Assembly: GCA_947626035.1 (NCBI GenBank)
Contig: CANQQR010000001.1
Coordinates: forward strand, 13,096-77,095
Direction: 5' to 3'
Source: an uncultured Bacilli bacterium
GTDB lineage: Bacteria; Bacillota_I; Bacilli_A; RF39; UBA660
DNA: 64,000 nucleotides
This document shows positions 32,311-35,731 of this stretch, piece by piece (position 1 is the stretch's first letter; the number at the start of each line of letters is the position of its first letter). A program made the translations under genes and the position numbers. Under the pieces are notes generated by a model. That model did not search any database and was not told the origin of the DNA. It saw only the letters and a program-made list of their open reading frames with translations.

Positions 32311-33645
32311 TTATTTCCCCGCAAGTTCATTTAGCATCTTCCATTCATCTTCAGGGATGATTTTTAATGCCCACTCTTCGGGAATATCAATCTTATATCT
32401 ATCTAAACTACCATGCTTTCGGTAGTACCTGTTCCAAAAATATATATTAGCAAGCGCGCGCGATTGGTGCATGACGCATATATGTGTGACTCTCTTATTT
32501 GGTGTTCCATTCTCTTGATAGCAAAGCCCGCTACACCATCCGCATCCATTAGCGATAGGACAATAGAAACACTTATCTGTGGACTGACTTCTACGCGTAA
32601 TAGCGTTTAACTCTGCAACTATCTTCTTTTCTTCATCTGTTGTAATAAGACCTCGATCGACATCACCTAAATAAAGCGGCGGTGCGTCGTTACCAAGAGA
32701 CGAAGGTAGAAAACGTATACAAGTTGAGTAATGACCAGTGGGATCAACACAAAGCATTTTACCCGTGCCGCCGCAGAAGTTACTATTATCATCTTCAGTC
32801 ATTGGATGACCAACTGTTTCTTCAAACAATGCCACCCATACACTATCTTCTTTATCATTATCCATAAGATAATCTGTAAAACGCTTTAACTCGTAATACA
32901 TTATTCTAGCATGTTCTTCTGTCCAGCCTTTTTCGTATACACAATTAGCGTGAATGTTAGTATACCCTAAGCTTAACATATGTGTTAAAGCATCATAGAC
33001 ATACATAACATTACCTGGAGCAATAGTAATCTTAGTTCCTAAATAATTACCGCGTTTCATCCAATCTTTTGCTGCGGTGACCGCAATATCATACGAAGGA
33101 GAGCCATCTGGGAATACTCTGCAAGAATCGTGGAGTTCTTTATTTCCATCAATAGTGATACTAAATGATATTTGATCTTTAAACTTATTCAGTATCTTTT
33201 GTACTTGCGGAGTATTATATAATATCCCATTAGAGCAAATTGAGAAGGAGTGGCGCTCCGCCCATGGATGACAGAGACGTCTGGCTTCACGACAAAAATA
33301 AGTCATAATATTATAAATTAAGTCTGCTTGCAAAAAAGGTTCGCCGCCAATAAACTCTATAATAATACCTGGTGATACAACAGGGTTAATGTAGCTATTG
33401 TTTTCAGGAGTCGCAGAAAGTAGCATGTCTACTGCTTTCTTAGCGGTATCAAAAGACATAACTTTCTTAGTCTTATGCCCCTGATAACAGTACTTACATT
33501 GAAGGTTACAGTCTTCAGTTACTTGGAATGTAAATGTTCTTGACAGCGGATATGTGCCATCTGGAAGCTGTTGATGCAACTCTGGATAGAGACGACACAT
33601 CATATCTTGCCACTGTTCTTCTTTTATTCTTTTACGCCCATCCAT
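32311..33645 (-). CDS. Radical SAM enzyme with SPASM domain (anSME/peptide-maturase-like)
   Basis: CNLQCKYC (CX3CX2C) near N-terminus; C-terminal Cys clusters CGGTGKMLCVDPTGHYSTC and CFYCPIANGCGWCSGLC typical of SPASM auxiliary Fe-S clusters. Confidence 0.75.
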   Translation of the reverse strand: MDGRKRIKEEQWQDMMCRLYPELHQQLPDGTYPLSRTFTFQVTEDCNLQCKYCYQGHKTKKVMSFDTAKKAVDMLLSATPENNSYINPVVSPGIIIEFIGGEPFLQADLIYNIMTYFCREARRLCHPWAERHSFSICSNGILYNTPQVQKILNKFKDQISFSITIDGNKELHDSCRVFPDGSPSYDIAVTAAKDWMKRGNYLGTKITIAPGNVMYVYDALTHMLSLGYTNIHANCVYEKGWTEEHARIMYYELKRFTDYLMDNDKEDSVWVALFEETVGHPMTEDDNSNFCGGTGKMLCVDPTGHYSTCIRFLPSSLGNDAPPLYLGDVDRGLITTDEEKKIVAELNAITRRSQSTDKCFYCPIANGCGWCSGLCYQENGTPNKRVTHICVMHQSRALANIYFWNRYYRKHGSLDRYKIDIPEEWALKIIPEDEWKMLNELAGK

Positions 33646-33954
33646 TTACATCACCTTAAATGTCATTTCGCAGCTATTATAGTCTAGGTTCCATTTTACT
33701 GGCTTACCTTCTAACTCTTTTGGTTTATATTCTCGCTCAATTTTTGACTTAAGTTCATCAAACGCATACTGCGCCTGCGCCATTTTTTTCTCATAAGCGG
33801 CAAAGATCTCGCTATCAAGAAACGCGGTATTATCATCAAACTGATGATCCTCAATAAGTCCCATAATCACATTGCGTTTCTGATGATACTCAAGACCTGC
33901 CTTTTGCACTAGATCCCTTACTTCCTCAGGGATAGTTACTTTATATTCTTTCAT
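33646..33954 (-). CDS. Small protein translationally coupled to the rSAM gene
   Basis: 102-aa ORF; its stop abuts the rSAM start. Confidence 0.45.
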   Translation of the reverse strand: MKEYKVTIPEEVRDLVQKAGLEYHQKRNVIMGLIEDHQFDDNTAFLDSEIFAAYEKKMAQAQYAFDELKSKIEREYKPKELEGKPVKWNLDYNSCEMTFKVM

Positions 33955-33978
33955 ATATATATTTATCTCCTTGAAAAA

Positions 33979-34740
33979 TTAATAATATGATATTGTTTTA
34001 CCTTGTGCGGTACCAAAGCATTGATTAGAACAGCTGTCTCTACAATTAGAATTACAGTTATTAGAACAAGAGCCAGAGCATGCCCCGTCACAGCCATCGC
34101 AATCATTGTCACAGCTACCATCACAGCCACTGCCACAACCGCGACAACCATTACATCCATGGCAGCCGTTTTGACATGAACCGCCACAACTACTACAACC
34201 ATTACAACCATCACAGCTGGTGCAACCGAACTCACATCCACTTCCACAATTTGAGTCACAGCCACCACACCCTGAACAGGTGCCTTCACAGCCTCCAGTA
34301 CATGCACTGCATCCTCCGCAACCGTTACAACCTTCGCAAAAGCTATCACAACCTCCGCTACAACCTCCGCTACAACTACCGCAGCCGCTACAACTACTGC
34401 ACCCAGTGCAACCGCCGCTGCATCCAGATACACATAGTCCTGTACATGCACTTCGGCATGATGAAGTAGTTGTTTCTTTTGATAGCTTCGTGACTTCATT
34501 GATCAATGTTCCGCTATAACCAGTTGGTATTCTTTGTCCTTTAACAGCATTAACTAAGTTATCATAATCTTTTATTATAAGCAGTAAATTGCCAGTCGCT
34601 TGCCCTTGAGTAGCAAGAATTGGTTGCCCTTTAACCGCGGAAGAGTAGGTTCCTAATTTACTTGATAAGTTTCGACGCTTAAATTCTGTCTCTATTGCTG
34701 CGCGAAGGGCGTTTATTTCTGCTGCCGTTATCATTGCCAT
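33979..34740 (-). CDS. Cysteine-rich repeat protein: ~95-aa N-terminal domain followed by ~155 aa of CxxC/CxGC tetrad repeats (~60 Cys)
   Basis: Start is 4 nt after the stop of the tail-fiber-like gene 34747-35358; sequence ...[24 protein letters not shown]...; overlapping alternate-frame ORFs are artefacts of the repeat. Confidence 0.55.
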
Positions 34741-34746
34741 ATTAAA

Positions 34747-35358
34747 TCACCCCCAAACAATAGTATATGGATTAATAGTTATATTAGCACCAACTATTTT
34801 ACCTGCGGTTTGCAGTGTTTGAGTTGAGGTAGTGGGTGTTACAGTAGTAGTGCCAGAATATGTGGCTAGAGTGCCTGTAATTGCAGCTCCACTAGCGTTA
34901 CTGAATGTCTTACCAGCGCGCACATCACCAGCCGCCGCGTTTCCCTCGCCAGTATAAGTCCCAGTAGCATCAAAAATTTTCACGCCATGCTTAATATTAG
35001 CTGCTGTTAAATTACTACTACCTACAACTGTAATATCACCAGTTGCATACTGACCTTCACTTATTGCTGTTTGGGTTGTAGTATTAGGAGTTATAGTTTT
35101 ACCTGGAACATCAGTCATAGTTGGACCTGCAACAGTTCCAGTTCCATCATGATAGCCCTTTGGTATTGTAATTGAATCATTCCGCCCTACTGAACTACTC
35201 CATCCAGAATTGTTGGGCATTGTTCCAGTCCCTATTTCATCGTCCGTGTCAGAGGTAACAACAGTTGTTCCCTCTAGTACATTATCAAGTGTAGCTGTTA
35301 ACTCATCAGAGCTAACTCCGCCACCACTTCCGCCAGGTGAAATAATTAATTTTCCCAT
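34747..35358 (-). CDS. Tail-fiber-like Gly/Thr-rich protein
   Basis: GGSGGG then T/G-rich beta-strand-like repeats (TGTLATYSGTTTVTPTTSTQTLQTAGK). Confidence 0.45.
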   Translation of the reverse strand: MGKLIISPGGSGGGVSSDELTATLDNVLEGTTVVTSDTDDEIGTGTMPNNSGWSSSVGRNDSITIPKGYHDGTGTVAGPTMTDVPGKTITPNTTTQTAISEGQYATGDITVVGSSNLTAANIKHGVKIFDATGTYTGEGNAAAGDVRAGKTFSNASGAAITGTLATYSGTTTVTPTTSTQTLQTAGKIVGANITINPYTIVWG

Positions 35359-35362
35359 ATCC

Positions 35363-35731
35363 TCAACTCCTAACGGTTCTTAAAATAACAGTGAAATCAC
35401 TCTTTGGCTTCTTAAAGGCAGTAAAAGTAATTTGATTCATAACAACAGCATCCTCACTACCATTAGTCATCAGACATCCTATTGCTTTGTTTCTAGCTTT
35501 TACTTCATCTAATCCTAGTCCTGTTGGTGGAATATATAACCCAATTACTTCAGCATCCATACCTGGCTCTAGACCAGGTACAGTTACTTTGTTTTTATAT
35601 GGGTATGTATCATTCCATCCAGTCAGAGGGATTTCAACTTGATATATTTCTTCTTCTTTATATTCTAATTTATTAAGTCTTTCATTTACTTGAGAAAGAT
35701 CATCTCCACTTGATGAATAAACACGACTCAT
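35363..35731 (-). CDS. Tail fiber N-terminal module protein (shares MSRVYSS.G. N-terminus with 36412-37644)
   Basis: Identical first 7 residues and similar next ~15 aa to the 410-aa fibre protein. Confidence 0.45.
   Translation of the reverse strand: MSRVYSSSGDDLSQVNERLNKLEYKEEEIYQVEIPLTGWNDTYPYKNKVTVPGLEPGMDAEVIGLYIPPTGLGLDEVKARNKAIGCLMTNGSEDAVVMNQITFTAFKKPKSDFTVILRTVRS

Follow-up and report, generated by a model that had tools for sequence, protein, structure and literature searches.

A radical SAM maturase, a small partner and a cysteine-repeat protein beside fibre-like genes: a candidate cross-linked fibre stalk in gut phages

We analysed a stretch of 64,000 nucleotides (nt) from a contig of an uncultured Bacilli bacterium (GenBank assembly GCA_947626035.1, contig CANQQR010000001.1, positions 13,096 to 77,095), here referred to in full as the window, which carries on its minus strand a gene cassette, assigned to a large gut phage, for a cysteine-repeat protein of 253 amino acids (aa; positions 33979 to 34740), a 102-aa protein (33646 to 33954) and a 444-aa radical S-adenosylmethionine (rSAM) enzyme with a SPASM region (32311 to 33645). 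On balance, we lean towards the interpretation that the cassette produces the stalk of a fibre-associated protein, which the rSAM enzyme would cross-link through many intramolecular thioether-type links in an anaerobic, reducing cytoplasm. The family membership of the enzyme, the obligate linkage of the three genes, the architecture of the substrate and the tail context in relatives were computed directly, and from these we infer the enzyme-substrate relation, the thioether chemistry, the role of the partner and the incorporation into the virion.

According to the mechanism proposed here, the 253-aa protein would be the substrate of the rSAM/SPASM enzyme, which would act together with the 102-aa protein. 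The latter probably presents the substrate, since the enzyme has no built-in recognition domain. Modification would begin at a C-x3-CTGLC-x3-C junction and would then occur many times along the Cys-X2-3 repeat, most likely as intramolecular sulfur-to-carbon (thioether) cross-links by analogy with PapB, QhpD and CteB; the nearest families by score, PapB, QhpD and SCIFF, are all thioether-forming maturases. The Gly/Ser/Cys-rich and otherwise disordered segment would thereby stiffen into a stalk that withstands both reduction and proteolysis. Such a stalk could be made in a Clostridia host, whose reducing, anaerobic cytoplasm does not allow disulfides to form. The helical N-terminal domain (N-domain) would attach it to the fibre protein whose gene is located just upstream, and in some relatives the stalk would bear a C-terminal, receptor-binding-like head.

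The maturase, its partner and their linkage

The enzyme matched the NCBIfam model TIGR04115 ("radical SAM peptide maturase, CXXX-repeat target family") with 432 bits against a cutoff of 350, its residues 36 to 403 being aligned to model positions 2 to 359 of 359, and by this profile we classify it as a TIGR04115 member and a true rSAM/SPASM peptide or protein maturase. It also matched Radical_SAM (PF04055) and Fer4_12 in Pfam and phrog_1802 in PHROG (E 3e-65). The next-best family was the PapB ranthipeptide maturase (NF047865; 166 bits, cutoff 340), followed by QhpD (105 bits, cutoff 453), and lower scores were obtained for the SCIFF maturase TIGR03974 (93 bits, cutoff 425) and the anaerobic sulfatase maturase TIGR03942 (49 bits, cutoff 349). 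Membership of the anaerobic sulfatase maturases or of PapB was ruled out by these scores below the cutoffs and by the substrate motif.

A preliminary description of the region, made from the sequence alone, had recognized the enzyme as an rSAM protein with a CX3CX2C motif and SPASM cysteine clusters, as is borne out by the family assignment and by the conserved residues. The cluster motif (C46-x3-C50-x2-C53; 33487 to 33510, minus strand) and 7 cysteines of the SPASM region (291, 309, 359, 362, 368, 371 and 390; 32476 to 32775, minus strand) were invariant across 6 homologues with 37% to 54% identity. The presence of a SPASM domain was also supported in substance by hidden Markov models (HMMs): the C-terminal 138 residues scanned alone matched TIGR04115, and the generic SPASM model TIGR04085 aligned over 88 of its 93 positions just under its cutoff (23.9 bits, cutoff 27, E 4e-5); the Pfam SPASM model gave no match in the 444-aa enzyme. 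The best match among solved structures was CteB (5wgg, E 1.6e-18), which was aligned to residues 37 to 370 with the SPASM region included. Since the core begins at residue 37, as compared to residue 98 in CteB, after its recognition element (RRE) for peptides made on the ribosome and then modified post-translationally (RiPPs), the window enzyme has no built-in N-terminal RRE. It was also noted that the homologue in contig L012 (Logan ERR14656733; positions 1537 to 3936) is 799 aa long, with a Hint/intein domain inserted exactly at the third cysteine of CX3CX2C (...CNLKCVY / C...intein...HN / CYQGHK...), where the +1 nucleophile would be a cluster ligand.

To collect relatives, IMG/VR was scanned with a degenerate pattern and the candidates were confirmed by alignment of the rSAM proteins, which gave at least 527 viral contigs with a gene for a related enzyme. 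Linkage was counted in the best 80 of these loci, at 53% to 57% identity to the window enzyme, which together with 5 earlier loci formed 11 enzyme clusters at 80% identity. The gene for the partner was located directly upstream of the enzyme gene in 80/80 loci, and an open reading frame (ORF) for an N-domain/Cys-repeat protein was located upstream of the partner in 76/80, the 4 misses having less than 1.25 kb of upstream sequence before the contig end. The order substrate, partner, enzyme was kept in all 76. The preliminary description had named rSAM genes in unrelated contexts and without a Cys-rich gene as an observation that would speak against it; wherever the contig allowed the comparison, the 2 genes were linked (76/76). 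By these comparisons, the Cys-repeat protein is almost certainly the substrate of the enzyme, and we take the 102-aa protein to be its obligate partner.

Some loci contained additional genes. Two tandem N-domain/Cys-repeat genes per cassette were found in L061 and L066 (3678 to 5582 and 11522 to 13324), together with a second, different rSAM gene followed by a gene for a Cys protein whose repeat is of the CxCDxxC type and whose N-terminal helix is similar. Furthermore, a small protein of about 95 to 117 aa that starts with MK[LV]ILKD and falls into several sub-families recurred beside the cassette in 58 loci (for example L013:9340-9639, L017:7357-7644, L068:7322-7675, L028:5315-5623 and L080:3532-4149). 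The window contained just a 50-aa look-alike ORF (35903 to 36055, minus strand), in a 680-nt gap upstream of the gene for a 122-aa protein described below.

The partner had been put forward as a possible RRE or PqqD-like protein, which found no support: no Pfam match to PqqD or an RRE was obtained at E≤1, and the modelled fold was not the winged helix of such domains (3-stranded sheet and 3 helices). The AlphaFold2 (AF2) model was confident (predicted local distance difference test score, pLDDT, 85.6; predicted template modelling score, pTM, 0.70) and consisted of a beta strand (3 to 7), a long hairpin of 2 helices (10 to 38 and 49 to 76) and, at the C-terminus, a beta hairpin (86 to 91 and 96 to 101). 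Its fold matches in BFVD were 3 uncharacterized proteins of 89 to 94 aa from uncultured gut phages, with TM scores of 0.65 to 0.83. Scans of Pfam, NCBIfam and PHROG gave nothing, and hmmscan with TIGR04116, the small protein of the bacterial CXXX-repeat system, gave no match at E≤10. All partners, including a canonical TIGR04116 member, end with W-x-[LI]-x-[YF]-x-x-x-E, and the partner and the TIGR04116 protein are alike in size (about 100 aa), position and this C-terminal motif. An hhalign comparison of the partner with the canonical member gave E 3.4e-4 at a probability of 38%, and a profile of 53 sequences (52 phage partners and that of the window) scored 13.3 bits against it, the maximum of 2000 composition-matched shuffles being 9.2. 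The sequence comparisons suggest that the partner is probably a very divergent TIGR04116 homologue.

The cysteine-repeat protein

Read from its N-terminus, the 253-aa protein consists of a predicted-helical N-domain (aa 1 to 94; 34459 to 34740), a junction C95-x3-C99-T-G-L-C103-x3-C107 that starts the repeat (34420 to 34458), the Cys repeat (34018 to 34458) and a short aromatic C-terminal tail of 12 residues, all encoded on the minus strand; it terminates with this tail and has no head domain. Residues 95 to 241 contain 42 cysteines, which make up 29% of the repeat. Successive cysteines are 4 residues apart in 23 cases and 3 apart in 18, with no other spacing, and the places between them are filled by Gly, Ser, Asn, Asp and Thr. 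In a set of 75 distinct phage proteins, 2243 gaps were of 4 residues, 985 of 3 and 42 of other lengths up to 8, and Ser, Gly and Thr prevailed at every position between the cysteines. The number of cysteines per protein ranged from 17 to 105 across the relatives, with products of 170 to 500 aa and N-domains of 95 to 110 aa.

Scans of the full-length Cys-rich protein and of its N-domain, which is specific to this family, against Pfam, NCBIfam and PHROG gave nothing, including no match to a fibre HMM. The repeat scanned alone gave only a weak match to TIGR04117 (E 0.036), and a second substrate of a related phage scored above the cutoff of the TIGR04114 repeat model (30.1 bits, cutoff 20). A collagen-like repeat was also considered and rejected: Gly was found at +2 in 77% of the CXX units, yet the 4-residue spacing dominates. 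The AF2 model of the Cys-rich protein alone had a pLDDT of 43, with a helical N-domain at 58 to 72 and an unstructured repeat.

In another frame of the repeat, a V/A-rich ORF of 178 aa is located at 33963 to 34499 (minus strand), and this shadow frame was the one picked by the gene call of the European Nucleotide Archive (ENA) on an identical contig (L009:1576-2112). The frames were tested in a codon alignment with contig L012, in which the partner protein is 83% identical to that of the window. The N-domain codons comprised 15 identical, 40 synonymous and 29 non-synonymous pairs, and 23 of 35 aligned cysteines used the other Cys codon. Because of this synonymous excess and the Cys codon swaps, the Cys frame is considered to be the real gene, and the same comparison ruled out the shadow ORF. 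Since gene callers may pick the shadow frame, the Cys-repeat family is likely under-represented in protein databases and probably under-annotated.

An exhaustive phmmer search with the N-domain identified just 8 weak cluster representatives, 7 of which contained Cys repeats, the eighth being cut off where the junction begins. No candidate was obtained in a k-mer-indexed homologue search with the N-domain alone. A profile search identified 34 proteins, all of them "hypothetical" or unnamed; those that matched the N-domain half shared the architecture where they were full length, and the others were partner proteins. Among deposited phage genomes (INPHARED), tblastn with a typical N-domain found none in cultured phages, megablast of the region gave no match, and the closest rSAM matches were unannotated faecal contigs.

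Three invariant residues of the N-domain, E19, R22 and R23, sit in a predicted N-terminal helix, and the junction motif was present in 65 of the 75 proteins. The start C-x3-C-x-G-L-C was common to the phage repeats, to a bacterial target with a twin-arginine translocation (TAT) signal in contig L002, and to leaderless second Cys-repeat ORFs of some phages, which begin with "MASCEGSCSGLC...". This sharing suggests that the recognition element of the enzyme may be the junction rather than the N-domain.

Genomic context and the nature of the product

Four contiguous genes on the minus strand had been listed in the preliminary description, and an ORF scan confirmed their coordinates and added a fifth. 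They encode, in the order of transcription, the added 122-aa protein (35363 to 35731), a 203-aa fibre-like protein with the C-terminus ...YTIVWG (34747 to 35358), the Cys-repeat protein, the partner and the enzyme. The 4-nt gap described between the fibre stop and the Cys-rich start is in fact one of 6 nt (TGA-TTTAAT-ATG), and a gap of 4 nt is located one gene upstream, between the stop of the 122-aa gene and the start of the fibre gene. The gap from the Cys-rich stop to the 102-aa start is 24 nt, with an AAGGAGA ribosome-binding site inside it, and the ATG of the rSAM gene directly abuts the stop of the 102-aa gene (0 nt); Shine-Dalgarno-like sequences precede the cassette gene starts. A GC-rich hairpin with a T-run is located directly 3' of the rSAM stop (32283 to 32307), resembles a bidirectional intrinsic terminator and is shared with a convergent gene on the plus strand for a TROVE protein. 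This hairpin is the end of the cassette, which has a single terminator and translationally coupled genes. No protease, exporter or immunity gene was found within the cassette.

The description of the region as a tail-fibre operon can be upheld in part. Most relatives do show the link to tail and fibre genes, and the cassette is usually located among baseplate and tail-fibre genes, whereas the window copy forms, with 3 fibre-like genes, a minus-strand island (32311 to 37644) amid genes for replication, nucleotide metabolism and tRNAs. In L013, a contig from a metagenome-assembled genome of Eubacteriales that was the single match of a scan of genome contigs, the order is baseplate wedge, baseplate, 3 tail-fibre genes, Cys proteins, partner, rSAM, a holin-like gene and endolysin. 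A baseplate wedge gene is located upstream in L030 and L041, with fibre-like genes on both sides of the cassette, and genes for tail, tail-fibre or virion structural proteins are located immediately upstream in L003, L028, L057, L068 and L080.

In the window, the 203-aa protein matched phrog_35834, phrog_38337 and phrog_13589, the latter two of which it shares with tail-fibre proteins of L013 and L003, and its tblastn matches were a protein encoded between the baseplate and lysin genes of Enterocloster phage PMBT24 and a "tail protein" of Dulem virus 35. The first gene of the island encodes a 410-aa putative fibre or minor tail protein (36412 to 37644, minus strand) with a weak match to the minor tail protein phrog_257 (E 8e-4). 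The 122-aa and 410-aa proteins share a 22-residue N-terminal segment, MSRVYSSxG...KL (11/22 identical, E 5e-5), through which alternative fibre proteins may be attached in a common way.

Head domains were identified in one rSAM lineage among the fetched loci, here called group D (L068, L070, L072, L074, L076, L077 and L084 to L095). The N-domain/repeat ORF in this group runs past "...CQAQAFGAVVSGG-VEDPTVDLIANG" into a Cys-poor C-terminal head of 136 to 192 aa. Two unrelated head types were observed after a conserved junction, a pattern also seen in modular receptor-binding proteins, one of about 190 aa ending with IPFKITGI (6 loci) and one of 136 aa (2 loci), while a poly-G tract of 4 to 9 nt puts the head in another frame in other members of the group. 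Such tracts were seen after the Cys repeat at locus positions of about 5090 to 5130 in L068, L070, L072, L076, L087, L088, L092, L093 and L095, and could reflect phase variation, programmed frameshifting or a homopolymer assembly error. Because an anchor, a variable periodic shaft and an exchangeable head make up the layout of a receptor-binding fibre, the repeat would be a structural shaft and not a peptide precursor. The head fusions, which come from the relatives, are the strongest argument for such a shaft.

If the product were instead a RiPP-like "moron", the N-domain would be a long leader, and the modified peptide, freed at lysis or cleaved, would act away from the virion, for instance to kill bacteria (a bacteriocin), to signal or to chelate metals, for the benefit of the phage or lysogen. 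The nearest characterized enzymes do make RiPPs, the TAT signal of the bacterial homologue's target implies that the product works outside the cytoplasm, some phages contain leaderless second substrates, and the cassettes in L007, L008 and the window are located outside the main structural module. Nevertheless, we consider this unlikely, as the cassette lacks a gene for a protease, transporter or immunity protein, the N-domain is long (95 to 110 aa), conserved and predicted to fold, the products are 170 to 500 aa long, several lineages have the cassette set between baseplate and fibre genes, and some relatives are fused in frame to C-terminal globular domains.

The composition of the repeat is also what one would expect of a metallothionein-like protein that chelates Zn, Cu or Fe or scaffolds Fe-S clusters, with the rSAM enzyme and its partner loading or remodelling it rather than forming carbon-sulfur links. 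Metallothioneins likewise combine a high Cys content, here 29%, and CxxC/CxxxC spacing with small polar residues in between, no conserved acceptor residue is visible in the repeat, and the TAT signal of the bacterial homologue would suit a protein that is exported with its cofactor bound. The strict co-occurrence with a SPASM maturase makes such a function improbable, as do the covalent substrate modifications by the characterized SPASM enzymes of the nearest families and the scans, in which no metallothionein or Fe-S family was matched. It is highly improbable that the enzyme modifies some other protein, such as the neighbouring fibre protein, while the Cys-repeat protein serves as an unmodified assembly scaffold or chaperone: phage fibres often need dedicated chaperones and the fibre genes are located immediately upstream, apparently translationally coupled, but the upstream fibre proteins differ widely between lineages whereas the junction motif of the Cys repeat is invariant, and the curated family is defined by CXXX-repeat targets that include bacterial systems without fibre genes.

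Several observations weigh against the interpretation of the product as a cross-linked fibre stalk. The window cassette is located outside the main structural module, and the cassette in L007 and L008 stands beside a TROVE gene and non-structural genes, with no structural neighbours. The matches in PHROG and by tblastn that underlie the fibre label of the 203-, 122- and 410-aa proteins are weak, and the head domains had no match in Pfam or, by tblastn, in deposited phage genomes. The low-confidence AF2 model of the substrate shows no fold in favour of a fibre, and the link between the partner and TIGR04116 is weak. Across the 75 phage proteins, the repeat has no conserved Asp/Glu acceptor like that of the CXXXD motif in PapA, and for this reason the chemistry may differ from that of PapB. 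Finally, the literature searched yielded neither biochemical nor proteomic data on any TIGR04115 system.

A more far-reaching proposal, which we regard as possible and put forward tentatively, is that gut Clostridia phages use a RiPP-type rSAM/SPASM maturase to staple a tail-fibre or receptor-binding protein along its Cys-repeat shaft by dozens of carbon-sulfur links. It would then be the first case in which an enzyme installs covalent cross-links in the host-recognition organelle of a phage. The orphan CXXX-repeat rSAM family would also gain its first function, and its bacterial members would make exported cross-linked proteins and not small peptides. Should the product be part of the virion, structural proteins of phages would be added to the substrates of RiPP-type radical chemistry. 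The links would then be an anaerobe's substitute for disulfides in extracellular fibres, and the curated and uncharacterized TIGR04114 to TIGR04119 family, common in viral contigs (at least 527), would gain a testable function. The enzyme would also be a natural one that processes up to about 100 Cys sites per chain, and could thus be of use, next to PapB, for the stapling of peptides and proteins.

Beyond the hairpin, the convergent gene (30770 to 32266) encodes a TROVE/DUF2828 Ro-like RNA-binding protein (phrog_850, E 4.5e-116). A TROVE gene is located beside the rSAM gene in L007 and L008 as well, where the order is TROVE, rSAM, Cys protein, 2 small ORFs and partner. The rSAM and Cys-repeat genes in these 2 contigs (about 7900 to 10000) are broken only by in-frame TAG codons, and the alignment of one TAG with the Gln of CYQGHK in the window enzyme indicates a phage with TAG recoded to Gln. 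The window also contains a tRNA array (20294 to 30701) with 16 tRNAs according to ARAGORN and 17 according to Rfam, including a tRNA-Cys(GCA) at 30446 to 30518. The array ends directly upstream of the TROVE gene with an atypical tRNA (30630 to 30701) to which ARAGORN could assign no anticodon and which could be a Y-RNA-like tRNA mimic. Divergent from the fibre island, a gene on the plus strand (37775 to 38797) encodes a nucleotidyltransferase (NTP_transf_2, phrog_388) fused to a CodY-like helix-turn-helix C-terminus, a fusion that fits a Firmicutes/Clostridia host.

Comparison with known systems

The preliminary description had presented the arrangement as one not previously described, which is not correct for the enzyme and its companions: the enzyme belongs to the curated family TIGR04115, and TIGR04114/04117, TIGR04116 and TIGR04119 define a bacterial system around it. 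This CXXX-repeat system, reportedly introduced by Haft and Basu in the Journal of Bacteriology in 2011, consists of TIGR04114/04117/04118 targets, the TIGR04115 rSAM enzyme, the small protein TIGR04116 and a second maturase, TIGR04119. The faecal phage-bin contig L002 contains the canonical bacterial form, with a TAT-signal Cys-repeat target (TIGR04117/04114), TIGR04115, TIGR04119 ("CXXX repeat peptide maturase", 235 bits) and TIGR04116 ("CXXX repeat peptide modification system protein", 105 bits). The phage form likewise has a TIGR04115 enzyme above the cutoff, cysteines every 3 to 4 residues, the C-x3-C-x-G-L-C start and a partner of about 100 aa. The bacterial target has a TAT signal where the phage target has an N-domain of about 95 aa, and the second maturase TIGR04119 was found neither in the window nor in any of the 80 phage loci.

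The second-best family match, PapB, installs 6 thioethers in repeated CXXXD motifs (PMC12373016). The PapB/PapA (freyrasin) system resembles the cassette in that a SPASM rSAM enzyme acts on a short repeated Cys motif to form many thioethers. However, PapA is a short peptide with a leader and CXXXD motifs, whereas the window substrate is a 253-aa protein in which position i+4 is the next cysteine and no Asp is in this place. QhpD, the third-best match, is an rSAM/SPASM enzyme that cross-links Cys to Asp/Glu in a protein kept as a structural subunit, QhpC, and thereby provides a precedent in which the cross-linked product is a protein and not a RiPP; QhpC has 3 cross-links, no repeat and no phage context. 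The SCIFF maturase CteB (5wgg) could be aligned over the rSAM core and SPASM, and differs by its N-terminal RRE.

The Cys protein also resembles the repeat-shaft fibres, with collagen-like Gly-X-Y shafts and swappable heads, in having a putative N-terminal anchor, a periodic and variable shaft and a baseplate or fibre setting, and the group D relatives share with them the exchangeable C-terminal domains. It differs by its Cys-based period of 3 or 4 residues and its dedicated rSAM maturase. Searches for literature on TIGR04114 to TIGR04119 or on phage-borne, rSAM-modified Cys-rich tail fibres found none, and the phage-specific form of what is, at its core, a curated and uncharacterized family thus appears to be undescribed in the literature searched. 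As compared to the bacterial CXXX-repeat system, what appears to be new in the phage form is the N-domain in the target together with the invariant C-x3-CTGLC-x3-C junction, the absence of TIGR04119 from the gene set, a partner that diverges from TIGR04116 and escapes its model, the location in the tail-fibre module and the occasional fusion to a head.

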